In this document: positions 882-26,318 of the stretch, in pieces
Position numbering within the stretch: position 1 is the stretch's first letter
How the letters are laid out: every line of letters starts with the position of its first letter
Source: Candidatus Saccharimonadales bacterium
Lineage (GTDB): Bacteria; Patescibacteriota; Saccharimonadia; Saccharimonadales; 2-12-FULL-41-12
Reading direction: 5' to 3'
NCBI GenBank assembly: GCA_036276755.1
Contig: DASUOG010000011.1
Span: forward strand, 3,125 to 67,124
Length of the DNA: 64,000 nt
The notes under the pieces: generated by a model
What the model was told of the DNA's origin: nothing
The model's database searches: none
The model's input: only the letters and a program-made list of their open reading frames with translations
Program-made: the position numbers and the translations under genes

Positions 882-2969
882 TTATTTTGAAGATTTGGCA
901 ATGATGGCTTCGGCTACGTTTGGCGGTACGTCTGCGTAATGGTCGAGCTCCATGCTTGAGCTGGCTCGGCCCTGGGTCATAGAACGCAGGTTTGTAGTGT
1001 AGCCGAACATTTCGCCTAATGGGACGAAACCGGTGATCTGCTTGATGTTATTGGCCAGATCTTCCATGGATTCGATGCGGCCGCGTTTGGAATTAAGGTC
1101 GCCTATCACATCGCCCATGAATTCTTCCGGCGTTACGACAACTACTTTCATAATCGGTTCGAGAAGTACCGGGTTAGCTTTTTTCACACCGCCTTGGAGG
1201 GCCATGGAACCGGCAATCTTGAAGGCCATCTCAGATGAGTCTACGTCGTGGTAGCTACCGTCGTAAAGCTCGGCCTTGATATCAACTACCGGATAGCCGG
1301 CCAGAACGCCATTGCTCATGGCTTCTTTGATGCCTTCTTCAACAGGCTTGATGTATTCTTGAGGAACTACGCCGCCTTTGATGGAGTTGATGAACTCAAA
1401 ACCTTTGCCGGCCTCGTTCTGGCTTAGGCGTAGCCAGACATCGCCATACTGGCCGCGTCCGCCGGACTGGCGGATGAATTTACCTTGTATCTCCACTGCG
1501 TCTTTGCGTATCGTTTCGCGGTAAGCAACCTGCGGTTCGCCGATGTTGGCTTCGACACTAAATTCACGTTTCATCCTATCCACCAGGATTTCCAGATGCA
1601 GCTCGCCCATGCCGCTGATGATAGTCTGGCCGGTCTCTTCATCAACCTTGATCCGAAAAGTCGGATCTTCTTCAGCAAGTCGCTGCAGAGCCAGGCTCAT
1701 TTTCTCCTGATCGGCCTTGGTCTTGGGCTCGATAGCGATACTTACCGGAGGCTCTGGGAAATTGATGCTTTCTAGGACAATAGGGTTGTTCTGGTCGCAA
1801 AGTGTATTTCCTGTAGTGGTCCCTTTGAGGCCGACTATCGCCGCTATATCTCCGGCGTTTACTTCTTTGACTTCTTCGCGCTTATCCGCCTGCATCCGGA
1901 CGATCCGGCCGACACGTTCCTTATCACCGGTTGAGCTGTTATAAACGTAGCTGCCAGCCACGATCTTGCCGGAGTAAACACGGAAGTAAGCCAGCTTTCC
2001 GACGAAAGGATCGGTCGCGATCTTAAATGCCAGGCCGGCAAAAGGTTCTTTGACATCAGGTTTCCGAAGAACCGTATCGTCGGTTTTAGGATGAGTGCCG
2101 GCAGTGTCTCCGCGGTCAATCGGACTTGGCAGATATTCTGTCGCAATATCCAGAAGTTTTTCAACTATCACTCCACGGCCGTCGCCGCCGCTGACGATAA
2201 AGAACTTGCCGGTCATCATGGCTGTTCTGATAGCGTGCTTGATCTCTTCCTCATTCAGACCTTCCTCGCCGACTTCCAGGTATTTTTCAAGCATTTTCTC
2301 ATCTTCGGCCACGGCATTCTCAATCAGCAGGCTACGGTATTTTTTGGCCTTGTCCAGCATATCGGCTGGAATTTCATCTACGCTTAGTTCCTTGTCGGTA
2401 AATTCCTTGTAGGTATAAGCCTTCATATCTACCAGGTCGACCACACCGTTGACTTTTTGTTCAAAACCTATCGGTAGATGTATCGGAAAGGCTCGTTTGG
2501 AAAGCCGTGCATGAATGGAGTCCAGTGATTTATAAAAATCCCCGCCGGTTTGGTTGATCTTATTGATGAAGCAAATTCTTGGCACATTGTATCCGTCGGC
2601 TTGGCGCCAGACGGTTTCTGATTGAGATTCTACGCCCATCTTGCCGTCAAAGACGGTGATCGCACCGTCAAGCACGCGTAAAGAGCGTTGTACCTCGACC
2701 GTAAAGTCAATATGACCCGGGGTGTCAATAATATTGATCTGATGATCTTTCCAATAACATGTAACAGCGGCGGATACGATAGTAATGCCGCGCTCGCGCT
2801 CCTGGGCCATCCAGTCGGTGGTGGTTTCGCCTTCATGCACCGCACCGATCTTGTGCTTTAATCCGGTCCGGTAAAGAATGCCTTCGGTTGTGGTGGTCTT
2901 GCCCGCGTCAATATGAGCGATGATACCGATGTTCCTGATGTCATTTATTGAATATTTCTTCTCTGCCAT
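882..2969 (-). CDS. fusA: translation elongation factor G
   Basis: 695 aa with GTPase motifs AHIDAGKTT and DTPGHIDF. Full-length EF-G architecture in the str operon position. Confidence 0.97.
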
Positions 2970-3277: not shown

Positions 3278-3757
3278 TTAATACCTTGCAAAGTGGGCAA
3301 AGGCGCGGTTGGCTTCGGCCATCTTGTGCGTGTCTTCTTTTTTCTTAACCGCCGGTCCGGTTTCGTTATAAGCGTCAACCAGCTCTAACGCAATACGATC
3401 TTCCATACTCATACCGGATCTAGCCCGGGCTGCCTCGACGAACCACATGATGGTCAGATGCGTCTGCCGCTGGCCTTTTACTTCGAACGGTATCTGGTAA
3501 TTCGCACCGCCTACGCGTCGTGAACGGGTTTCCAGATGCGGTTTTACGTTAGACATAGCTTTTTCAAAGACATCGAGCGGGTTTTGAACCTTTAGCTTAT
3601 CAGCCGCCTTTTGCATGCCGTGATATACCAAGCGTTCAGCCAGCTGCTTCTTGCCATCTTCCATAACCCGGTTGATAAGCCTCTGGACCATCACGCTGTT
3701 ATACACCCTATCCGGCTGGATTTCTCGGACTAATGATTTGGTCTTATGTCGCGGCAA
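3278..3757 (-). CDS. rpsG: 30S ribosomal protein S7
   Basis: S7 motifs (RRVGGANYQIPFEV, AFAHFARY). The likely start is TTG at 3757, 1 nt after the rpsL stop. The ORF-track GTG at 3817 would overlap rpsL by 59 nt and add a non-conserved 20-aa extension. Confidence 0.93.
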   Translation of the reverse strand: MPRHKTKSLVREIQPDRVYNSVMVQRLINRVMEDGKKQLAERLVYHGMQKAADKLKVQNPLDVFEKAMSNVKPHLETRSRRVGGANYQIPFEVKGQRQTHLTIMWFVEAARARSGMSMEDRIALELVDAYNETGPAVKKKEDTHKMAEANRAFAHFARY

Positions 3758-3758
3758 T

Positions 3759-4172
3759 TTATTTACCTGCTTTCTTGGCGCCGTACTTGCTGCGTCTTTG
3801 CTTGCGGTTTTCGACACCCTGCAAGTCCAGGTTACCGCGAACTACATGATACCGAACGCCGGGAAGGTCCGGAACCCTGCCGCCACGTATCAAAACTACC
3901 GCGTGTTCTTGCAAGTTATGTCCCTCGCCGCCGATATATGCCCATACCTCATGTCCGTTGGTAAGCCGCACACGAGCGACCTTGCGTAAAGCCGAGTTTG
4001 GTTTCTTCGGAGTCTTGGTCGTAACTTTCACGCATACGCCGCGCTTGAACGGTGAAGGTTTTTCATAATGGCGTGTTTTCAGGTTATTGGATACGCGTTG
4101 AAGCGCCGGCGACTTGCTTTTACTCGTCGTCTTGACTCTTGGTTTTCGGACTAATTGATTAATAGTCGGCAA
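3759..4172 (-). CDS. rpsL: 30S ribosomal protein S12
   Basis: [12 protein letters not shown]...[16 protein letters not shown]... is canonical S12. TTG start preceded by AAGGAG. Confidence 0.97.
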
Positions 4173-15799: not shown

Positions 15800-16267
15800 T
15801 CAACTCCGGTAATTTAGAATACCTTGGTTAGTCTCTACTTTGATGCCCTTGATGCCCAGGTTCGCAGCGAATTGCATATCGGTTTCTCGATCGCCGATCA
15901 TTAGCGAGGTCGTTTTGGTTATATCTTTTAAGTGGCTTACCAGGCCGGTTTTCGGCTTGCGGCAAGCACAGCCGTCGTCCGGGCCATGCGGACAGATCAG
16001 GATCTGGTCAAAAAACACTCCTTTATTCTCGAGTCTGCGGGTCAACTCGGATTGGACGGTATTAAAGACATGATGCGGATTTTTCGACGTGCCCAGATGG
16101 TCCTGGTTGGTTACCATCACCAGCTTATAGCCTTCTGCATTTAACTTTTGTAAATATTTGACCATGCCGGGAGCAATACGCAGGCGTTCCACGGAATCGA
16201 CATATAATGTATCCTGCGGTTCAAAGATCAGCGTGCCATCGCGGTCAACAAACGCATATTTGCTCAT
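15800..16267 (-). CDS. HAD-IIIA phosphatase of the HisB-N/GmhB type (probable histidinol-phosphatase)
   Basis: Motifs DRDGT, TNQ and the Zn-loop CPHGPDDGCACRKP. It has a 4-nt ATGA overlap with the hisC stop. The substrate assignment rests on operon context only. Confidence 0.8.
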   Translation of the reverse strand: MSKYAFVDRDGTLIFEPQDTLYVDSVERLRIAPGMVKYLQKLNAEGYKLVMVTNQDHLGTSKNPHHVFNTVQSELTRRLENKGVFFDQILICPHGPDDGCACRKPKTGLVSHLKDITKTTSLMIGDRETDMQFAANLGIKGIKVETNQGILNYRS

Positions 16268-17325
16268 CGTTTCAAATATTCCTCATAAATGTTGATGAAT
16301 TTTTCGACCTGGGCTTTTGATCCTATGCTGACCCTGAACGTATCTTCGATGCCGGCCTGGCTTTGCGGTCGGATCAAAATACCGTTTTGTTCCATGTACG
16401 CGGTTAGTTTTTTTGGATTATCCGGTTTTACCAACATAAAATTGGCTCCGGATTCGTAAAACTCTATCTTATTCTCACGAAGAAAAGCTTCAAGCAAAGG
16501 CTTGGCGACACCCATGACATGCGAAGCGTAAGCACGGACTTCCTCCAGATCGTCCATGGCTGCGATACCGAGATTGTAAGCATACATGCTTACGTCATAA
16601 GGGCTCTTGATAAGCTTTAAAACCTCGGCGACTTTTTTATCGCAAACCGCATAGCCCAACCTGGCGGCGGCTATGCCGAAGGCCTTGCTGAACGTTCTGG
16701 TTACGATGATATTAGGATATTTTTTGATCACATCGACGCAGCTGACGCCGGAAAACTCTCCGTAGGCTTCATCGATCAAAAAAACCGTCTCGTCGTATTT
16801 GCCGGCCCAATCTTCGATCTGCCCTACCGGGACCAGATTGCCTGTCGGATTATTGGGATTACAGATCAAGGCAAGCTTTACTCCGCCGGATAGCTCGGTC
16901 TCGTATTCATCGGCCGGAAAGGCCAGCCTGTCGCCGGAAAAGTTAAGTTCAATCAATTCGGCTTCGGCCAATTGGGCGTATTGGTAAAACATCGTAAACG
17001 TCGGTACGCTTATCAGAACCTTATCCCCCGGATCAACATACCCTTCGAATATGGTCTTTAGGGCAATGTCCGATCCGTTGGTAACAACTACGTTCTCAGG
17101 GCTGACCTTAAGATAGTCCGCTATCTTATTTTCTAAAGTCCCGTCGTACTCCGGATATAACTTCGGCTCGATGTTTTTAAGGTCGGCCATGCCTTGTTTG
17201 ACCTTTAAGCCGGGCGGGATCGTACGCTCGCTGAAGTCCAGATGAATACCCTTGAAGGTCTGCCGGCCGGTCAAAGGCGGTTTGTATTTATTGAGGCTAG
17301 AAACTTTCCTGCTTGGCTTAATCAT
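16264..17325 (-). CDS. hisC: histidinol-phosphate aminotransferase
   Basis: Class II aminotransferase with NPNNPTG and the PLP-lysine context TFSKAFGIAAARLGY. It overlaps both the hisD stop and the phosphatase start. Confidence 0.9.
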   Translation of the reverse strand: MIKPSRKVSSLNKYKPPLTGRQTFKGIHLDFSERTIPPGLKVKQGMADLKNIEPKLYPEYDGTLENKIADYLKVSPENVVVTNGSDIALKTIFEGYVDPGDKVLISVPTFTMFYQYAQLAEAELIELNFSGDRLAFPADEYETELSGGVKLALICNPNNPTGNLVPVGQIEDWAGKYDETVFLIDEAYGEFSGVSCVDVIKKYPNIIVTRTFSKAFGIAAARLGYAVCDKKVAEVLKLIKSPYDVSMYAYNLGIAAMDDLEEVRAYASHVMGVAKPLLEAFLRENKIEFYESGANFMLVKPDNPKKLTAYMEQNGILIRPQSQAGIEDTFRVSIGSKAQVEKFINIYEEYLKR

Positions 17326-18605
17326 AGTCTTATCTCCATTGCCCGCTTATGTCCCTCCAAAGATTCCACCGTCGCCATAGCGGACACAATCGGAGCGATA
17401 TTTGCGGCGCCTGCTTTGGTAAGCTTCTGAAACGTAATACGTTTTTGAAAACTGCTGAGCGAAACCCCGGAATAAGTCCGGGCATAGCCATACGTTGGCA
17501 GGGAGTGATTGGTACCGCTGGCGTAATCGCCGGCAGATTCCGTAGAATACCGGCCTAAGAATACCGAGCCGGCGTTGGCTATTTCATCGACATAGTTTTC
17601 AGCCCCCTTAACGTTTAGGATAAGGTGCTCAGGTGCAAAACGATTGGCAAATTCTATGGCCTGGGAAACGTCTTTCACTATCAGCACGAAACTGTTGTCA
17701 AGTGTCTTCCGGGCTATTTCCTTGCGCGGCAACGAATCCAGCTGAGAAGTAAGCTGCTTTAAAATACTTTCGGCATTTTTTTCACTCGTGCTTACTAAAA
17801 TGACCTGCGAATCGGTTCCATGTTCGGCTTGGCTTAGCAGATCAGCAGCCACAAAATCCGGCCGCGCTTCTTCGTCGGCGACAACCAGAAGTTCCGTAGG
17901 ACCGGCGGGCATATCTATGGCCGCTCCGTCCATATCGGTCGACACGAGCATCTTGGCGGTCGTAACGTATTGGTTCCCCGGACCGAATATCTTATACGTT
18001 TTAGGTACGGTCTTTGTGCCGTAAGCCATGGCCGCGATTGCCTGGGCTCCGCCGGCTTTATAAATCTTATCTACCCCGCAGATATCCGCGGCATACAATA
18101 TGCTGCCTGGAATTTTTCCATCAGTCCCGGGCGGCGTACATATTATTATTTCCTTGCAACCTGCCAACTTGGCAGGGATAGCCAGCATCAACAGGGTCGA
18201 TGGCAAAGCAGCCGTACCGCCGGGCACATACAGACCGACTTTTTCTATGGGTCGCATTTCGGCGAAACAGGTTACTCCCGGCATGGTCTCAACACTCTGC
18301 CGACCAGTCAGTTGAACATCGTGGAACTTCTTTATATTTTCGGCCGCTTTTTTATACGCGTCCTTCAGCTTAACCGGCAAGTTGGCGGTCGCTTCTGCTA
18401 TTTCCTCTTTGCTAACCACCAGTGAATCCAAGTCGGCTTTGTCAAACTTCTTCGCCAGCTTAAATAATGCCGCATCACCTTCATTCCTTACCCGTGAGAT
18501 TATCCCCTCGACGGTCTTTCGCACGCCGGAAGAACCTATCGCTTTTCGTTTATAAAGCGACTCTAAATCATCTTTTTGGAGTCTGGCGATGTAATAAGTT
18601 TTCAT
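17322..18605 (-). CDS. hisD: histidinol dehydrogenase
   Basis: 427 aa with conserved HisD blocks (GPGNQYVTTAK, SQAEHG, APEHL). Confidence 0.95.
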   Translation of the reverse strand: MKTYYIARLQKDDLESLYKRKAIGSSGVRKTVEGIISRVRNEGDAALFKLAKKFDKADLDSLVVSKEEIAEATANLPVKLKDAYKKAAENIKKFHDVQLTGRQSVETMPGVTCFAEMRPIEKVGLYVPGGTAALPSTLLMLAIPAKLAGCKEIIICTPPGTDGKIPGSILYAADICGVDKIYKAGGAQAIAAMAYGTKTVPKTYKIFGPGNQYVTTAKMLVSTDMDGAAIDMPAGPTELLVVADEEARPDFVAADLLSQAEHGTDSQVILVSTSEKNAESILKQLTSQLDSLPRKEIARKTLDNSFVLIVKDVSQAIEFANRFAPEHLILNVKGAENYVDEIANAGSVFLGRYSTESAGDYASGTNHSLPTYGYARTYSGVSLSSFQKRITFQKLTKAGAANIAPIVSAMATVESLEGHKRAMEIRL

Positions 18606-18606
18606 C

Positions 18607-19857
18607 TTAATTCCTGGATAATCTGATAGTCTTTGCGGTGTTTTCGATATTATCTTTGGTTTCTTTGCCCGACTCCAGATCCTTGAGAGTAAAGATACCC
18701 TGGCTTATCTCATCGGGACCGACGAACAAGGCAAAACGGATGTTGTTCTTTACGGCCGATTTTATTTTCTTATCTATCTTCCTGTCTTCGTAATCAATGG
18801 CTACGTTTATTCCGAGCCTGCGCAATTCGTCCGCAAAGGGCTGGGCTTTTTCATTCACCTCGCCGATAAGCAGCATTGCTACGTCAGTAGCCGGGCCGAG
18901 TTTTGGCACAAGATTATTCGAGTTCAAAAAATTTAGGAGCGTCACGTCGCCCATGCCGAACCCGACGGTCGGCACCGGCTCCACGCCAAAGTTACCGACC
19001 AGCCCGTCATAGCGTCCGCCGCCGAACAGACTGCGGTTGTTCTGTGGATTCTTATCAAACACTTCAAAAACGATATCGGTGTAGTAATCAAATCCTCTTG
19101 CCAGCGAATATTTTGATTTGACGGAAATTCCTGATTTTTCACATCTGTTTTTTATCTCTTTTATTTCTTCGGTGTCGCCATCATAAACCAGAAATTCATA
19201 TAAATCTTCCGGTCTTTCGACGGCGTCAGCCAGCTTATTTTTAAATTCAGCCTTGTCGATCTTTTCGAACCCGTCGATGAGTCTCATAACTTGTTTCAAC
19301 TGCATCTTGGGTCCGGACTCTTTGATTCTTTTATCCAGTAGTAGTTTGGAGTTGATTCTTATTTCATACATCTCGGGATTGGCGTCCAATGCCTTCATGA
19401 TTGAATCGGCCAGTTTGATTATCTCAACGTCCGCTTCAATGCCTCCCACGCCGAAAATATCGGCATTCAACTGCCAAAATTCACGCAAGCGGCCCTTCTG
19501 CGGCCGTTCATAGCGGAAAAAGTTAGCGATGTTATATAGCCGGAGCGGATAGCCTAGTTCCTGCCGCCGCGCCGCCACCATCCGGCTGACCGATGGCGTC
19601 ATCTCCGGCCGCATGATCACCTTTCTGTCGCCGCGGTCGGTGAAGCTGTATGACTGTTCGTTTACTATCTCCTCGCTGGTTTTGGACAAATAGAGGTCCA
19701 CCGGCTCTAAAACCGGAGCGTCGTATTCCTCATAGCCATAAGATTCACAGACCCGGCGGATCACCGCGAACATCCAGTTGCGCACGCGCATATCTTCCGG
19801 GTAAAAATCCCTGGTTCCCTTATACGGTTGTGTACTTAACTTCATATTTTCTTCCAT
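18607..19857 (-). CDS. hisS: histidine--tRNA ligase
   Basis: Class II core (KGTRDFYP, FRYERPQKGRLREF, GGGRYDGL) plus a C-terminal HGTP anticodon-binding domain, so this is HisRS rather than HisZ. There is a 1-nt gap to hisD. Confidence 0.93.
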   Translation of the reverse strand: MEENMKLSTQPYKGTRDFYPEDMRVRNWMFAVIRRVCESYGYEEYDAPVLEPVDLYLSKTSEEIVNEQSYSFTDRGDRKVIMRPEMTPSVSRMVAARRQELGYPLRLYNIANFFRYERPQKGRLREFWQLNADIFGVGGIEADVEIIKLADSIMKALDANPEMYEIRINSKLLLDKRIKESGPKMQLKQVMRLIDGFEKIDKAEFKNKLADAVERPEDLYEFLVYDGDTEEIKEIKNRCEKSGISVKSKYSLARGFDYYTDIVFEVFDKNPQNNRSLFGGGRYDGLVGNFGVEPVPTVGFGMGDVTLLNFLNSNNLVPKLGPATDVAMLLIGEVNEKAQPFADELRRLGINVAIDYEDRKIDKKIKSAVKNNIRFALFVGPDEISQGIFTLKDLESGKETKDNIENTAKTIRLSRN

Positions 19858-20288: not shown

Positions 20289-20344
20289 TTATAGTTCTAT
20301 AAAATATAATGTACTTTTGCGTAAATTTATTATATATTATAAAA

Positions 20345-21037
20345 ATGTCTCAGGTATCTAAAGCAGAGTTGTATACAGCTTCGTTTGAAATAACCGCAAA
20401 ACATGAAGAACACGGCTTTGACCGGCGCCCGGAAGAAGCATTTGACCTGGATAGGGAGCCAGTTATGATTACCGGAGTTTATATGACCGGCGATGCCGAA
20501 GACCCGCCCTTAAACCAAGTCGGGCTGCTGCGCGAAGACTTGGCAAGACCGGGCATACAATCAGCTCTTTTCGTTCATGCAGCTAGCGAACTAGCTCTTA
20601 AGAATCTACCTTTTATTCCTGATCAAGAGATGAAAGGGATATGCAAACAAATAGCAGAAGCCGTAGATGAAATGGAAGAGCCTTCCGAAGGCGGAGGTTT
20701 CGCGATAATAGCTTTATATGCTATCTACAACGTACACAATCATCCAATACCACACACTTTTGTCTCTAGAAAATTCGTAGATGTGTTAAGTAAGAAGACA
20801 GAGTTGCCTACACCTACCGAGGATGAAATGAGGCGACTTTATTCAATCCAAGCCGAGCATAATTCCGATATAGAACCGTTTGAGGAATATGTTGCGGCAA
20901 TAGAAGAAGTGCTCGCCCAAGCCGGTTCTGACGAACAGGCAAACAGGGTCCTTGCTGAGAATTACTTGAATTTCCTTGTGGTGCCGAGAACCGACATGCA
21001 TCCCGTAATAGCCTCTGCACTTTTTAGCGAGAGATAG
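20345..21037 (+). CDS. hypothetical 230-aa acidic protein (orphan plus-strand gene)
   Basis: I placed the start at MSQVSK (ATG 20345) after a very AT-rich upstream region. The track start at 20309 lies inside that AT-rich region. No recognisable domain. Confidence 0.7.
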   Translation: MSQVSKAELYTASFEITAKHEEHGFDRRPEEAFDLDREPVMITGVYMTGDAEDPPLNQVGLLREDLARPGIQSALFVHAASELALKNLPFIPDQEMKGICKQIAEAVDEMEEPSEGGGFAIIALYAIYNVHNHPIPHTFVSRKFVDVLSKKTELPTPTEDEMRRLYSIQAEHNSDIEPFEEYVAAIEEVLAQAGSDEQANRVLAENYLNFLVVPRTDMHPVIASALFSER

Positions 21038-21140: not shown

Positions 21141-21170
21141 AAAAAACATCAGAGACAATCTGATGTTTTT
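21141..21170. terminator. bidirectional rho-independent terminator
   Basis: AAAA-AACATCAGA-gacaa-TCTGATGTT-TTT: a perfect 9-bp stem with an A-run on one side and a T-run on the other. It lies between the plus-strand orphan gene and the 3' end of tRNA-Leu. Confidence 0.7.
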
Positions 21171-21257: not shown

Positions 21258-21287
21258 ATTTATTAAGTTCCTTCAATATACCATAAA

Positions 21288-22415
21288 TCAAGCTACGAAT
21301 TCGGCCGGGTCTTGAAACACACGGAGCACGGAATTGCCCAAAAAAATGAATTTGCCTTCCGGAATCAATCTTTCGACCAGGCTTTTGGCCCGGTCCATGG
21401 TGCTTTTGTCCATAACTACAGCTACTCCTACGCGTGACACAGGACTATCATCGTCATCTGCCGGTTCATAGCCGGTTGCTCCTAAAAGACGAGCCCTCTG
21501 CTCTTCCGCCTTGTCGGTATAGTGCTTACCCAGCTTGAGAGCTACTACATCCACATCCTCGCCTTTTCGCTGGGCTTCAAACGTGTCAGTACCGATAACT
21601 TGCGCCGCCATCATCCGCGGGAGGGACCACATCGCTTGACCCAGCGGTTTTCTGATTCTATCGAATCTCTGGCTGGTTTCGTCAAGCATATGATTTCCTT
21701 CACCAGCCGTTATGAGCGATGAGCCCGGCCTTTTAACAGGGATTACTCTGTTGCCGAAAGCTCCTTCGAGCACAGAGGCAAAATCGGCCTCTGCAGGCAG
21801 TCCGTAAGGAACCCCTCTTTCAACCATAAAGCCAAGTGGCTCGCTTAAGGCAAGTTCGCCGAGATTTAACGCAAGCGGTCGCCTAAGCGAATTGTTGATA
21901 TTGTTGGCGATATAACGAGCGTAAAGCGGGTCGTCTGTCCGGGCCAGACTGAGATGGGCACCGGAATATTTGTTCTCGTTAGGAATTCCCAAACGGTTTC
22001 TGAGCTTAGATGCTTCCCGCCTGGTAATTTTCTGCCCGGCCGTATCCAAATTAAATCCGATAAAATAATTCGAATCATGCTGTGGGAAAACGTCCGCTTC
22101 GGCCGTACTGCATGCCCGGGATTCAGGAAACTCAAAATGTGCGATAGCTTCGTTAACCAGATCCCTGGTGGCAAGGTAATTTCTGCCAGGTGTATGCATA
22201 GCGTGGGTCAATAAGGTATCAGTCCTGGTCAATACGGTAATGTGAGGTTTGACAACCTTCAAGTTACCGAAGGAATCCAGTACTTCCTGCAAGTAGGCTA
22301 TGTCCGCTTCGGCATTGCTCTCATCAAAGTCGGCAAGTCGTTCAGCAATAAACGGTCCATCATAAAGGGCAAGTTCTTCTTTATACAGACCGGAATCAAT
22401 TTCGCCCACTGGCAT
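21288..22415 (-). CDS. hypothetical 375-aa protein with an N-terminal 2H-phosphoesterase-like domain
   Basis: It carries two H-x-[TS]-x motifs in duplicated context about 95 aa apart (KPHITVLTRTD and GAHLSLARTDD), the hallmark of the LigT/2H superfamily. The C-terminal 170 aa or so are unknown. It has its own TTGATT-N16-TATAAT promoter 9 nt from the ATG. Confidence 0.6.
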   Translation of the reverse strand: MPVGEIDSGLYKEELALYDGPFIAERLADFDESNAEADIAYLQEVLDSFGNLKVVKPHITVLTRTDTLLTHAMHTPGRNYLATRDLVNEAIAHFEFPESRACSTAEADVFPQHDSNYFIGFNLDTAGQKITRREASKLRNRLGIPNENKYSGAHLSLARTDDPLYARYIANNINNSLRRPLALNLGELALSEPLGFMVERGVPYGLPAEADFASVLEGAFGNRVIPVKRPGSSLITAGEGNHMLDETSQRFDRIRKPLGQAMWSLPRMMAAQVIGTDTFEAQRKGEDVDVVALKLGKHYTDKAEEQRARLLGATGYEPADDDDSPVSRVGVAVVMDKSTMDRAKSLVERLIPEGKFIFLGNSVLRVFQDPAEFVA

Positions 22416-22476
22416 AATTATTTTATTATATCATTTTTTTGTAAAAAATCAATCAAGGCAGGTCTCAGTTTTTGCT

Positions 22477-22968
22477 TTATTTCTGCTGTAAAGTTTCGTA
22501 GGTAAGACAGGTTTCTTGTGTACCCAGCATAAGAAAAGCCCGCGTATATGTTACGGCTTCACCTAAGACTCTGATTGTTTCACCTTTTTCAACATCGTCA
22601 AAAGATTGTGGCTCCCCCTCTTGTGAATAGGCTTTGCTTTCTATACTTTTTGATGGCAGGCCGTAGCGCCCATCTGTACATATTTTTATAGTTCCGTCCG
22701 GGTTCCTGGCTATTAAGTCCGATGCCATAAAATCGTCGCTCGGGATTCTTATCCTGTTTGGTATTAAATTAAGAGACCCAGCCTTAGGATCAATCCTTGC
22801 TACCTGGCCTACAATATCAAATTTATCAGGAGTATCAGTTTTAGATGCCAATACAATGCCACCCAGAGCCCCTATTGTTCCTACCAGAGCAAGCAAGGTG
22901 GCTAGAGTAGTAGGCTCCTTCTCTTTTTTATCGTAAAGTTTAAATTTTTCTTTCAGCTTTTCGATCAT
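22477..22968 (-). CDS. hypothetical membrane-anchored 163-aa protein
   Basis: A single N-terminal TM segment (LATLLALVGTIGALGGIVLA) followed by a soluble domain. TATAAT lies 7 nt upstream of the ATG. Confidence 0.75.
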   Translation of the reverse strand: MIEKLKEKFKLYDKKEKEPTTLATLLALVGTIGALGGIVLASKTDTPDKFDIVGQVARIDPKAGSLNLIPNRIRIPSDDFMASDLIARNPDGTIKICTDGRYGLPSKSIESKAYSQEGEPQSFDDVEKGETIRVLGEAVTYTRAFLMLGTQETCLTYETLQQK

Positions 22969-22976
22969 AATATGTA

Positions 22977-23555
22977 TTATAATATATTTTTATAGTTTTG
23001 TCTACTATACGGTTCCCTCGTCTTTGTTAAGGGTTTATAAAAAATTAACATGGAATCACCATAATTCTTCTGCTTGATTATGCTCAGTCCCTTCAGTTCA
23101 AAAGGGTGCAGCCCGCCGGGAATATTGACGACGAATATCCCGGTAGGTGCCAGATGTTTAGCTAATTTTTGGAGCAAGGTTATTTTCAGTTGATCGAACG
23201 GCGGATCACAGAGAATGAGATCGAATTTCTGCTCCGGGTTATTATCGCTCCATCCGCCAGAATTAGCTCTAACGGATTTAATCTTATCGTTAATTTTTAA
23301 TTGTTTAACGTTATCAGTGATAGTTTTAACAGCATTTTTATCAATATCTATGGACGTGGCGTGCTCTGCCCCGCGGCTGACTGCCTCAAAAGATAATGCA
23401 CCGCTGCCGGCAAACGCATCCAGTACGGTCAACCCTTCTATGTCGCCAAGCGCTGAGAAAAGACCGCCGCGGACCTTTTCGCTCATCGGATGCGTCCTGT
23501 GACCTTTCGGCGCGTCAAATCGTCTGCCTCCCAAGCTGCCGGAGATTATCCTCAT
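22977..23555 (-). CDS. rsmD: 16S rRNA (guanine966-N2)-methyltransferase
   Basis: RsmD-type N-terminus (MRIISGSLGGRRF...HPMSEKVRGGLF), SAM motif LDAFAGSGALSFEA, and DPPF. Confidence 0.9.
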   Translation of the reverse strand: MRIISGSLGGRRFDAPKGHRTHPMSEKVRGGLFSALGDIEGLTVLDAFAGSGALSFEAVSRGAEHATSIDIDKNAVKTITDNVKQLKINDKIKSVRANSGGWSDNNPEQKFDLILCDPPFDQLKITLLQKLAKHLAPTGIFVVNIPGGLHPFELKGLSIIKQKNYGDSMLIFYKPLTKTREPYSRQNYKNIL

Positions 23556-23562
23556 ATTTTTA

Positions 23563-24252
23563 CTATACGCTACTTAGCGATAAGCCGAGCGGAGAGTCCG
23601 CCGGAACCGTCAATGTCAGCTCGTCTCGCCGGGCATTGACCTCGTCTTCAACAATTTTAAGCGCGTCCGGGTCACTTGCATAAATAGGGGGTGGTGTGAA
23701 GTCAAGCCATCGTTCAGTACCGTCCACGTCAAATGCAAGCGAATTAGCCAGCACATCCGACGCTACTACTTCACCATCTTCGTTTGGAAAAGCCCTGACC
23801 AAAGCCTTCCTTGCGGATTCACTGGCGGCGGTCTCTTCAATCGGCAATTTGCCGCCATAGGTTGCGTCTTCTGTAATAAGTGCGGCCGGGTTATCGGCAT
23901 CTTCCACAGCCAATAAGATAACAAAGGCGGGCACCTTTTTCCTAAGGGACGGCGCTCTTCTGACGATCTCGTCGATGGCAGGAAGTTCATCGCGCAACTT
24001 CTCCATAGGATCACTTTTATCCCGGGGTATTTTAATCGCCAAGTCCCGGCTTATTGGGAAGCGTATGGTTCCTAATGGAGTCAAGGCTAAGCTCTGGCCC
24101 ATGCCTATCACGCCTGAACCGATGCTTTGTACTCTATAGCTGTCACTGGCTCCAAGACGTTTGCCGGGTTTACGGGAGGCTAGTTCTTGCCAGGAGCGGT
24201 TTAGATAGGCAGCCGCCTCAACGCACTTCTCCAGATATGGATATTCGGCCAT
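23563..24252 (-). CDS. hypothetical 229-aa protein between recG and rsmD
   Basis: I placed the start at MAEYPYLEK (ATG 24252), with TAATAT 7 nt upstream. The track start at 24288 would overlap recG. No recognisable domain. Confidence 0.7.
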   Translation of the reverse strand: MAEYPYLEKCVEAAAYLNRSWQELASRKPGKRLGASDSYRVQSIGSGVIGMGQSLALTPLGTIRFPISRDLAIKIPRDKSDPMEKLRDELPAIDEIVRRAPSLRKKVPAFVILLAVEDADNPAALITEDATYGGKLPIEETAASESARKALVRAFPNEDGEVVASDVLANSLAFDVDGTERWLDFTPPPIYASDPDALKIVEDEVNARRDELTLTVPADSPLGLSLSSV

Positions 24253-24284
24253 TTTATTTATATTACAATATTTTGGTAATAAAA

Positions 24285-26318
24285 TCAATTAAGGATCGTG
24301 ATTAGTCTGTTTTTGCGAACTTCGCGGGCAAGCCAAGGATAATCGGCGAGTTTGTCGCTTCGATCGAGGAATTTCTGGGCAGACGCACGGGCAGAAGCTA
24401 TTAGCTTGGTATCCGTTATATTTGCCAGTCTCAGATCCAATTCGCCATGCTGGGCGACACCGTAAACAGCTCCCGGGCCGCGTAAACGCAAATCCAGCTC
24501 GGCCAGTTCAAAGCCGTCATTTGTCCCTTCCAGCGCGCGGATCCGCTCGCTCGGCGCGCTGCTATCACTCATCAGCAAATAGCAATAGCTCTGGTGTTTA
24601 CCGCGACCGATACGCCCCCTAAGCTGGTGTACTTGAGCCAAGCCGAACCTTTCTACGCCATCGATGAGCATTATCGTCGCGTTCGGCACGTCCACGCCGA
24701 CTTCTATGACGGTAGTCGAGACCAGCACGTTTGTCTTGCCACCTACAAATCTTTGCATGATCCGCTCCTTGTCGTCAGTCTTTAGCCTGCCATGCAGCAG
24801 TTCGACTTTGCGATGCTTGAAAATTTTTGTCGAAAGCTCGCTATAAACTTCTTCGGCGGATAAATAGTGCAGTTTGTCGGATTCGGATATCAAAGGGCAG
24901 ACTACGAACATTTGCCGTCCGGCCGCGAGTTCCTTCTCGATATCAGCATACAGTTTTTGTTTGGAATTAGGAGAAACGATCTTGGTTATCGGCGGCTTTC
25001 TTCCGGGCGGCATCTCATCTATGACCGATATGTCCATCTCGCCGTAAACGGTCAGTGCCAGCGAACGGGGTATCGGCGTAGCAGTCATTGAAATCAGATG
25101 AGGTATATGGCCGGCTTTTTTAAGCAGGTGTTTCCGCTGGTCGACGCCGAACCGGTGTTGTTCATCGATAATAGCCAGTCCCAGGTTATGCATATCTACA
25201 TTTTCGCTGATTAAGGCGTGAGTACCGATGATCAGACCGGCTTTGGCAGATTTTATAGACGTTTGGGCCGTTTTTTTCTGTGCCGGTTTCATGGAGCCCA
25301 GCAAAAGGACCGTCCGATCCGCCATATCAAGCGGTTTTAGCATCTCGTGCAGATTATGGGCATGCTGGCGCGCCAATATTTCCGTCGGTGCCATAAGTGC
25401 CACCTGATACCCTTGCTTGAGCGCCATTAAGGCCGCCATAGCAGCCACGACGGTCTTGCCTGAGCCGACATCACCTTCAACCAGCCGGTTAGCCGGAATT
25501 TCTTTTTGCATGTCCATATAAATCTGCCAAACGACCTTGCGCTGCGCATTGGTCAATTTGTAGGGTAGTTTAGCTACGAACTGTTTTGCCAGCTTTTCAT
25601 CGAACGGTATTTTTATAGCCTTGGCACGAGTGTTTTCCTGCTTGTTAATCAGGGCCGCCAGGACAAGCGTAAATACTTCTTCAAAAGCCAGGCGTTCCTT
25701 AGCCTTGATTATGTCATCCAACGATTTAGGAAAATGGATACCTAGCAAAGCGGCGGCTCTGTCTATGAGCTTATGTTCCTTGATGACAAATTCAGGCAAC
25801 CCTTCCTCGATATCTCTGATATCGTCAATAAGACCGGCCAGTATCTTTCTGATGGCGGCCGACTTCAGTCCCTTTGTTTCCCGATAGATCGGTATAATAC
25901 GCGCGGTGTTGAGCGGAAAGTTCTTTGCCAGCTCCGCCCCCGGATTCATAATCGCGAAACGGCCGCGGCTTAATTCGTAATTACCGGAGATGTAGTATTT
26001 CTGCCCGGTTTTCAAAGCGGCGGGCCGGTACGGCTGGTTGAACCATACCAAACGCACGCTGTCAGTATCATCGCTGGCTACGGCTTCGGTGATGTGCATA
26101 CCGCGGCGGACATAACGGCCTCTTGCCTGTTTGATTTCGGCCTTGATGGTGACATGTCCGGGCTTCAATTTTGCTACCGGAGTTACCGTGGAGTAATCCT
26201 CATACTTGCGCGGGAAGTTCCAAATTAAATCTCTTTTCGTTTTGATCCCCAAGATTCCAAGCCTTGCCGCGACGCTATCGCCCACTCCTTTTATTTCATT
26301 GACCGGGGTCTCGTCCAT
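24285..26318 (-). CDS. recG: ATP-dependent DNA helicase RecG
   Basis: An OB-fold wedge region plus SF2 helicase motifs (GDVGSGKT, IIDEQHRFG, QLRGRIGRG). Confidence 0.96.
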   Translation of the reverse strand: MDETPVNEIKGVGDSVAARLGILGIKTKRDLIWNFPRKYEDYSTVTPVAKLKPGHVTIKAEIKQARGRYVRRGMHITEAVASDDTDSVRLVWFNQPYRPAALKTGQKYYISGNYELSRGRFAIMNPGAELAKNFPLNTARIIPIYRETKGLKSAAIRKILAGLIDDIRDIEEGLPEFVIKEHKLIDRAAALLGIHFPKSLDDIIKAKERLAFEEVFTLVLAALINKQENTRAKAIKIPFDEKLAKQFVAKLPYKLTNAQRKVVWQIYMDMQKEIPANRLVEGDVGSGKTVVAAMAALMALKQGYQVALMAPTEILARQHAHNLHEMLKPLDMADRTVLLLGSMKPAQKKTAQTSIKSAKAGLIIGTHALISENVDMHNLGLAIIDEQHRFGVDQRKHLLKKAGHIPHLISMTATPIPRSLALTVYGEMDISVIDEMPPGRKPPITKIVSPNSKQKLYADIEKELAAGRQMFVVCPLISESDKLHYLSAEEVYSELSTKIFKHRKVELLHGRLKTDDKERIMQRFVGGKTNVLVSTTVIEVGVDVPNATIMLIDGVERFGLAQVHQLRGRIGRGKHQSYCYLLMSDSSAPSERIRALEGTNDGFELAELDLRLRGPGAVYGVAQHGELDLRLANITDTKLIASARASAQKFLDRSDKLADYPWLAREVRKNRLITILN

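Follow-up and report, generated by a model that had tools for sequence, protein, structure and literature searches.

A tandem 2H-like protein with a probably degenerate second copy between rsmD and tRNA-Leu(UAG) in a Saccharimonadales genome

We analyzed a stretch of 64,000 nucleotides from a Candidatus Saccharimonadales genome (GenBank assembly GCA_036276755.1, contig DASUOG010000011.1, positions 3,125 to 67,124), referred to here as the window. On its reverse strand, between the methyltransferase gene rsmD and a tRNA-Leu(UAG) gene, lies a gene for a protein of 375 amino acids, whose stop codon occupies 21288-21290. An identical product, from a Candidatus Saccharimonadales metagenome-assembled genome, is recorded at NCBI as 'hypothetical protein VFX86_01820'. 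A previous sequence-only reading had seen in it a 2H phosphoesterase-like domain fused to a C-terminal part of about 170 amino acids that it could not assign. No signal peptide or hydrophobic N-terminus is found in the sequence of the protein, which is predicted to be cytoplasmic. The gene and its parts, all on the reverse strand (-), are listed below.

21288..22415 (-): whole gene of the tandem 2H-like protein, 375 amino acids, ATG start (open reading frame listing)
21840..22358 (-): N-terminal 2H phosphoesterase-fold domain, amino acids ~20-192 (AlphaFold2, Foldseek, stand-alone homologues)
22233..22244 (-): first catalytic-type motif H58-I-T-V (sequence), on predicted strand 53-62, pairing with H43-L-T-L of LigT
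21939..21956 (-): second catalytic-type motif H154-L-S-L-A-R159 (sequence), on predicted strand 154-160, pairing with H125-I-T-L-L-R130 of LigT
21291..21830 (-): C-terminal 2H-like domain, likely degenerate, amino acids 196-375 (hhalign, shuffles, weak Foldseek matches, stand-alone homologues)
21711..21731 (-): counterpart of the first motif in the C-domain, R229-P-G-S-S-L-I, with His replaced by Gly231 (hhalign columns)
21417..21437 (-): counterpart of the second motif in the C-domain, S327-R-V-G-V-A-V, with His replaced by Arg328, Ser by Gly and Arg by Val (hhalign columns)

Proteins of the 2H superfamily carry two H-x-[TS]-x motifs with hydrophobic x positions, about 80-100 residues apart and each on a β-strand, within a bilobed α+β fold. 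In the 375-residue protein, H-x-[TS]-x occurs four times (HITV at H58, HDSN at H113, HLSL at H154 and HYTD at H298), while 0.83 copies are expected from its composition. The motifs at H58 and H154 alone combine hydrophobic x positions with conservation in the homologues P0002-P0004. They are spaced by 96 residues, in agreement with the two motifs about 95 residues apart that had been reported before. The closest homologue, P0002, does not conserve HDSN or HYTD, and these two were dismissed as chance occurrences.

When 1.84 billion representative proteins were scanned exhaustively with HMMER, only eight family representatives were found, the query included. P0002, the sole other full-length member, has 380 amino acids and 42-43% identity. 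Since this homologue of the same length occurs in another metagenome with the same gene order, we regard the gene as real. Four members (P0003-P0006) are stand-alone proteins of 189-209 amino acids that match the N-terminal half only, and two (P0007 and P0008, 187 and 221 amino acids) match the C-terminal half only. In a word-indexed search of 5.8 billion proteins, the query retrieved nothing except itself, and the N-domain alignment retrieved two known members only. No relatives appeared when GTDB genomes and JGI metagenomes were scanned with the protein or with a four-member alignment.

The AlphaFold2 model of the N-domain was built from a six-sequence alignment. It forms a block over residues ~20-190 with a predicted local distance difference test score (pLDDT) of 75-93, in which H58 and H154 are both placed on strands and two helices (64-74, 80-94) follow the first motif. 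Searching the PDB with this model by Foldseek, as had been proposed on reading the sequence, returned only 2H enzymes down to rank 29 (E 3.1e-5 to 3.5e-2, probability 0.87-1.0, TMt about 0.4-0.54). The best match is the phage phosphodiesterase PDE-9 (9q2g, E 3.1e-5), and the others include human and yeast Usb1, Arabidopsis CPDase, the penguinpox (poxvirus) cyclic GMP-AMP (cGAMP) phosphodiesterase, Deinococcus drCPDase, AKAP18 and Escherichia coli LigT. Among the viral structures of BFVD, the N-domain matches 2'-5' RNA ligase superfamily proteins and several Acb1 proteins (E ~2e-4, TMt up to 0.66).

Sequence profiles point in the same direction. P0002 matches PF13563, the 2'-5' RNA ligase superfamily, with an E-value of 1e-5 and 26.1 bits, slightly below the curated cut-off of 27, and P0004 and P0008 match it weakly. 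We also aligned the family profile by hhalign with four LigT sequences taken from the PDB matches, of which the E. coli LigT sequence is identical to 4qak/5ldi. This alignment has an E-value of 1.1e-3 over 116 columns, and its register pairs H58 with H43, H154 with H125 and R159 with R130. We take it as weak corroboration of the 2H assignment, not as proof. It superseded an hhalign comparison with the single E. coli LigT sequence, which was insignificant and paired the first motif with the second motif of LigT.

Based on the modeled fold with its PDB matches, the PF13563 match of P0002 and the LigT register, the predicted 2H fold of the N-domain is well supported, and the 2H-like domain that had been suggested is located to the N-terminal half. 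The placement of this domain in one particular 2H family (LigT/ThpR, Acb1 or Usb1) is not supported. These results also bear on the explanation that the motifs are chance matches in an unrelated or spurious open reading frame. The query itself has no curated family match, 0.83 motifs are expected anyway, and two of the four are indeed chance, but homologues carry both motifs in aligned positions and the predicted 2H fold is confident, so that this explanation is effectively refuted and we leave it next to no probability.

The C-terminal half can be assigned after all. By hhalign, the alignment of N-type sequences (A2) matches that of C-type sequences (A3) with a probability of 85.5% and an E-value of 5.7e-6 over 143 columns. 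The score of this match is 43.7, whereas 120 column shuffles give 11.6±1.8 (maximum 18.0) and the reversed alignment gives 12.4. The two halves are in register across both motif strands (KPHITVL/RPGSSLI and AHLSLAR/SRVGVAV), and the pseudo-motifs of the C-domain are 97 residues apart, compared with 96 in the N-domain. When the C-domain model was compared with the PDB by Foldseek, the best matches were Usb1 and the poxvirus cGAMP phosphodiesterase, with a probability of up to 0.99. A PDB profile search with the C-domain alignment returned ribosomal S9 matches at E 0.1 only, which we take as chance.

We consider it likely that the C-terminal half duplicates the N-domain in a diverged form that is catalytically dead. 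The C-domain lacks the 2H motif pair, with G231 and R328 standing at the His columns. Both His, the Thr/Ser and the Arg are all replaced, and the architecture would be an active-type 2H domain followed by a pseudo-2H domain. The stand-alone C-type protein P0008 retains A-H-V-S at the position of the second motif. No tandem of an active and a dead 2H domain turned up in a shallow literature search. This shows only a lack of evidence, and such architectures may well occur in large protein databases. Receptor tyrosine phosphatases carry in one chain an active domain (D1) followed by a catalytically dead paralogous domain (D2). They provide an analogous tandem of enzyme and pseudo-enzyme, unrelated in fold and chemistry. 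The window protein represents an orphan 2H subfamily that contains an internal duplication and carries a pseudo-enzyme domain, in a superfamily that is itself well studied.

We further compared the protein with known 2H enzymes. The LigT/ThpR structures (5ldi/4qak; TT0787, 1iuh; drCPDase, 5h7e; PH0099, 1vdx) are all structural matches of the N-domain and share with it a 2H fold of ~175 amino acids, in which the two HxT/S motifs are separated by 80-100 residues and the second His is followed five residues later by an Arg. On the other hand, the sequence does not place the window protein in this family, for which NCBIfam gives no match and hhalign a probability of 20%. The window protein also has the helices 64-74 and 80-94 after the first motif and the fused dead second copy, and its family is restricted to a few Saccharimonadales. 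Usb1 (HVSL, PF09749), a 3'-5' exoribonuclease of U6 small nuclear RNA, is a high-ranking structural match as well. The second motif of the His-bearing members reads H-[LVI]-S, being HLSL or HVSL in the two full-length proteins, with the Ser as in Usb1. In contrast to the window protein, Usb1 is eukaryotic; the first motif here uses Thr, and Pfam HVSL is not matched even at E<=10. RNA repair cassettes (Pnkp/Hen1, RtcA/RtcB and the Trl1-type kinase-CPDase-ligase) do not resemble this locus, where no ligase or kinase gene is adjacent.

The viral enzymes Acb1, PDE-9 (9q2g) and the poxvirus cGAMP phosphodiesterase (9bkq) are the best Foldseek matches (TMt 0.5-0.66) and have the same two-His core. 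Viral 2H phosphodiesterases are often undetectable by sequence, and PDE-9 degrades the messenger of the cyclic oligonucleotide-based antiphage signaling system (CBASS) (bioRxiv 10.1101/2025.08.21.671373). The gene might then encode an Acb1/PDE-9-like conflict enzyme that cleaves cyclic di- or oligonucleotide immune messengers, produced by the bacterium itself for regulation or by a host or competitor. That PDE-9 is the best PDB match speaks for such an enzyme, as do the Acb1 matches in BFVD and three traits typical of conflict genes: rapid evolution, a patchy distribution and the gain and loss of domains. However, Usb1 and the plant CPDase match almost equally well, and the resemblance to Acb1 is at the level of the fold. 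The viral enzymes are single-domain proteins, whereas the window gene is chromosomal and stands amid the housekeeping genes rsmD, recG, tyrS and hisS, with no adjacent cyclase or effector gene and no signal peptide in its product. A PHROG search gave no match, and PADLOC gave no meaningful match, its single one being P0003 to PDC-M38B at E 0.002. We therefore judge an anti-CBASS or related conflict enzyme to be distinctly unlikely.

As the reading we favor, we think it rather probable that the protein is an active 2H phosphodiesterase whose partner domain is a pseudo-enzyme. Two copies of the 2H fold would be combined in one cytoplasmic chain, and the signature of the N-copy (H58-x-T60, H154-x-S156 and R159) is complete. 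By analogy with LigT/ThpR, CPDase, Usb1 and Acb1, H58 and H154 would most likely act as metal-independent general acid and base on a phosphodiester linked to the 2' or 3' position of ribose, and the Thr/Ser and Arg may hold the phosphate. We infer catalytic activity from these motifs and the fold, and two reactions are candidates. One would be the opening of a 2',3'-cyclic phosphate at RNA ends or in mononucleotides, as in ThpR, CPDase and CNPase. The other would be the cleavage of a 3'-5' or 2'-5' linkage in a short or cyclic oligonucleotide via a 2',3'-cyclic intermediate, as in Usb1, Acb1 and PDE-9. The structural matches do not discriminate between substrates, with the phage phosphodiesterase, Usb1 and the plant CPDase scoring alike. 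The study of PDE-9 emphasizes that subtle core features determine specificity (bioRxiv 10.1101/2025.08.21.671373). The C-copy is probably a non-catalytic partner, which may widen the substrate-binding surface or serve as a built-in pseudo-dimer that substitutes for a dimer partner.

Several observations weigh against an active enzyme with a pseudo-enzyme partner. Neither Pfam nor NCBIfam gives a 2H match for the query, Pfam not even at E<=10. A sequence search of the PDB with the query likewise brought up nothing useful, and a match to MsddA at E 0.26 was dismissed as noise. In the Pfam search, one of the checks suggested earlier, the strongest 2H signal was that of P0002, slightly under the PF13563 cut-off, and the query itself gave none. 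A PDB profile search with the N-domain alignment gave no match, and the probability of the LigT alignment is only 20%. The AlphaFold2 model behind the 2H matches of the C-domain, built from four sequences, has a low confidence (pLDDT 56.5), and the E-values of these matches are all >=0.015. The neighbors (an orphan membrane open reading frame, rsmD, recG, tyrS, hisS and tRNA-Leu) include no gene that points to a pathway.

Further points on the same side come from the evolution of the family. Identity to the window protein is 24-42% among family members, compared with 54-70% for RsmD and 61-77% for RecG of the same loci, so that the 2H-like protein evolves about twice as fast as its neighbors. 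The nearest GTDB genome (L009, RsmD 72%) has neither a 2H-like gene nor any insertion in the gap. Both His are present in four of the six N-type members; the first is lost in P0005 and both are lost in P0006. In one genome, the rsmD-tRNA gap holds P0007, a C-type protein with no His, and no other family member was found there. Fast evolution, domain gain and loss and the repeated loss of His therefore argue against an essential conserved catalysis across the family. The 2H-like gene is a lineage-restricted, rapidly evolving accessory gene of a few Saccharimonadales.

These losses lend weight to another explanation, in which the whole family binds RNA or a nucleotide as pseudo-enzymes or ligand binders and the His are relics or serve binding, as in the AMP-binding central domain of AKAP18. 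P0005, P0006 and P0007 occupy the same genomic position while lacking one or both His, and the 13 residues that are invariant across the six N-type members do not include a catalytic His. AKAP18 is also among the structural matches, and the C-terminal half of the window protein is already dead. Nevertheless, H58, T60, H154, S156 and R159 are all kept in the four closest N-type members at an overall identity of 34-41%, which argues for selection. This argues that the window member is still an enzyme, and we consider a pure binder unlikely, though it is the alternative to be taken most seriously.

The favored reading of an active 2H domain with a dead partner assigns an orphan protein of the candidate phyla radiation, missed by curated sequence models, to a known fold with a plausible chemistry. 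Moreover, the family provides a natural series in one genomic position, with members that have both His, one His or no His and that are fused or split, along the transition from 2H enzyme to pseudo-enzyme. Its practical value is limited, as the family is tiny and the superfamily well studied, and a 2H specialist would not be surprised by it.

The surroundings of the gene bear on its proposed link to tRNA. The gap between rsmD and tRNA-Leu(UAG) covers 21258..22976 of the window, and its features and flanking genes are the following.

22977..23555 (-): rsmD, 16S rRNA m2G966 methyltransferase family, upstream anchor of the gap (PF03602, E 7e-42)
22477..22968 (-): orphan open reading frame of 163 amino acids with one N-terminal hydrophobic or membrane-anchor helix (open reading frame listing)
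22425..22452 (-): promoter-like site TTGATT-16-(TG)TATAAT upstream of the ATG (consensus scan, 10/12 matches with TG)
21275..21283 (-): extended -10-like element TGgTATATT, 17 nt upstream of the tRNA 5' end, conserved in locus L001
21173..21257 (-): tRNA-Leu(UAG) with encoded CCA (ARAGORN; Rfam RF00005, 58.4 bits)
21141..21170 (-): terminator-like hairpin and T-run after the tRNA, AAAAACATCAGA-ttgtc-TCTGATGTTTTTT, with equivalents in L001 and L005

The orphan open reading frame corresponds to the small membrane-anchored protein noted upstream of the 2H-like gene in the sequence-only reading. It has no Pfam or NCBIfam match and no homologue in 88 related loci, and this second occupant of the gap appears to be unique to the window genome. 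ARAGORN and Rfam likewise agree with the earlier distance of 30 nt between the stop of the 2H-like gene and the 5' end of the tRNA. Every family member with recovered upstream DNA sits after rsmD, either directly or one gene away (L004 and the window), and the order of the block is PBP, tyrS, recG, an unknown gene in some cases, rsmD and the 2H-like gene. In five of six contexts (the window, L001, L005, L006 and L007/L008), tRNA-Leu(UAG) follows the family gene at 30-54 nt. P0005 is followed by FemAB, without a tRNA.

Such an adjacency could suggest that the protein is co-expressed with the neighboring tRNA-Leu(UAG) and acts on it, for example in end healing or processing. The stop of the gene lies 30 nt from the tRNA with no terminator between them, and the same tRNA also comes after the family members of L001, L005, L006 and L007/L008. 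We surveyed the gap at 80 rsmD loci from GTDB Saccharimonadales genomes. The distance from the rsmD stop to tRNA-Leu(UAG) is <=100 nt in 43 genomes and 101-300 nt in 6, and an insertion of 0.3-1.35 kb separates the two in 18. The tRNA was not found downstream of rsmD in 8 genomes, and in the other 5 the contig is too short for the distance to be determined. With enough sequence, tRNA-Leu(UAG) is thus downstream of rsmD in 67 of 75 loci.

In most Saccharimonadales genomes the gap is empty, and its occupants in the others are diverse. They include an AAA_33 P-loop kinase (L060), FemAB on the opposite strand (L010, L016), polytopic membrane proteins (L066, L083, L086) and orphans (L025, L054, L069, L084). 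A protein of 186 amino acids at 3555..4115 (+) of L033, a more distant Saccharimonadales genome, carries T-H-I-S-S and A-H-I-S-L motifs and can be aligned to the latter half of the N-type profile (hhalign E 1.1e-4, probability 57%). The 2H-like gap family may therefore be wider than HMMER detects. L076 and L081 contain C-type-like proteins with weak matches (E 2-4e-3). The idea that all gap occupants form one hyper-divergent family was rejected, because only the L033 protein and, weakly, those of L076 and L081 relate to the profiles.

We compared the 50 nt that precede tRNA-Leu(UAG) in 76 loci. Nearly all of them contain a -10-like hexamer (TAAAAT, TATAAT or TAGAAT) at a distance of ~15-25 nt from the tRNA 5' end. 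A TTTTAC or TTTTAT often lies ~17 nt further upstream of the hexamer, inside the 3' end of rsmD. These elements imply that the leader of the tRNA is short and that its promoter lies within the gene before it, and tRNA-Leu(UAG) is its own transcription unit. The hairpin after the tRNA is too A+T-rich for the rule of the terminator scan.

Taken together, the ancestral order is rsmD and then tRNA-Leu(UAG), with a variable gap between them in which the 2H-like gene is one accessory gene among other occupants. Because the order is inherited, the occupants are heterogeneous and the tRNA has its own promoter-like element, the adjacency is weak evidence for a tRNA-related role. A function linked to tRNA-Leu, implied by the sequence-only reading, is disfavored by these data, and we give it very little credence. 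For annotation, this locus is a caution that proximity to a tRNA can reflect inherited gene order instead of a functional link.

On the promoter of the 2H-like gene itself, the earlier suggestion is borne out in part. The promoter-like site TTGATT-16-TATAAT with TG is present, though only as a match to the consensus. The -10 hexamer of this site stops 9 nt short of the ATG, and no Shine-Dalgarno-like sequence is seen in 22413..22452. With so short a distance between the -10 and the ATG, the mRNA would be near-leaderless if the site is used.

A bolder proposal is that the rsmD-tRNA-Leu(UAG) gap is a hotspot of sequence-orphan 2H-like proteins that diversify rapidly, which may be active, half-dead, fully dead or fused and would form a conflict or signaling module of episymbionts. 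A nucleotide messenger of the host or of the cell itself might be degraded or sequestered, with the dead domain as a sponge or specificity subunit. We regard this as a long shot.

Between recG and rsmD, the window contains an open reading frame of 241 amino acids at 23563..24288 (-). Its sole detected homologue (42%) is at 721..1389 of L003, in the same position. At the recG-rsmD position of L006 there is an unrelated open reading frame of 272 amino acids.

The Saccharimonadales group, with its reduced genomes, is usually considered to lack amino-acid biosynthesis. Histidine biosynthesis genes are located directly downstream of hisS in the window, within 15800..19857 (-). These encode histidinol dehydrogenase (17322-18605), a class I/II aminotransferase (16264-17325) and a HAD phosphatase (15800-16267). 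A fused HisF/HisH-like gene lies beside hisS within 7900..10605 of L006. Finally, an open reading frame of 242 amino acids at 20309..21037 (+) converges on the tRNA terminator, and a partial homologue with 29% identity is found at 1891..2190 (-) of L005, in the same relative place.

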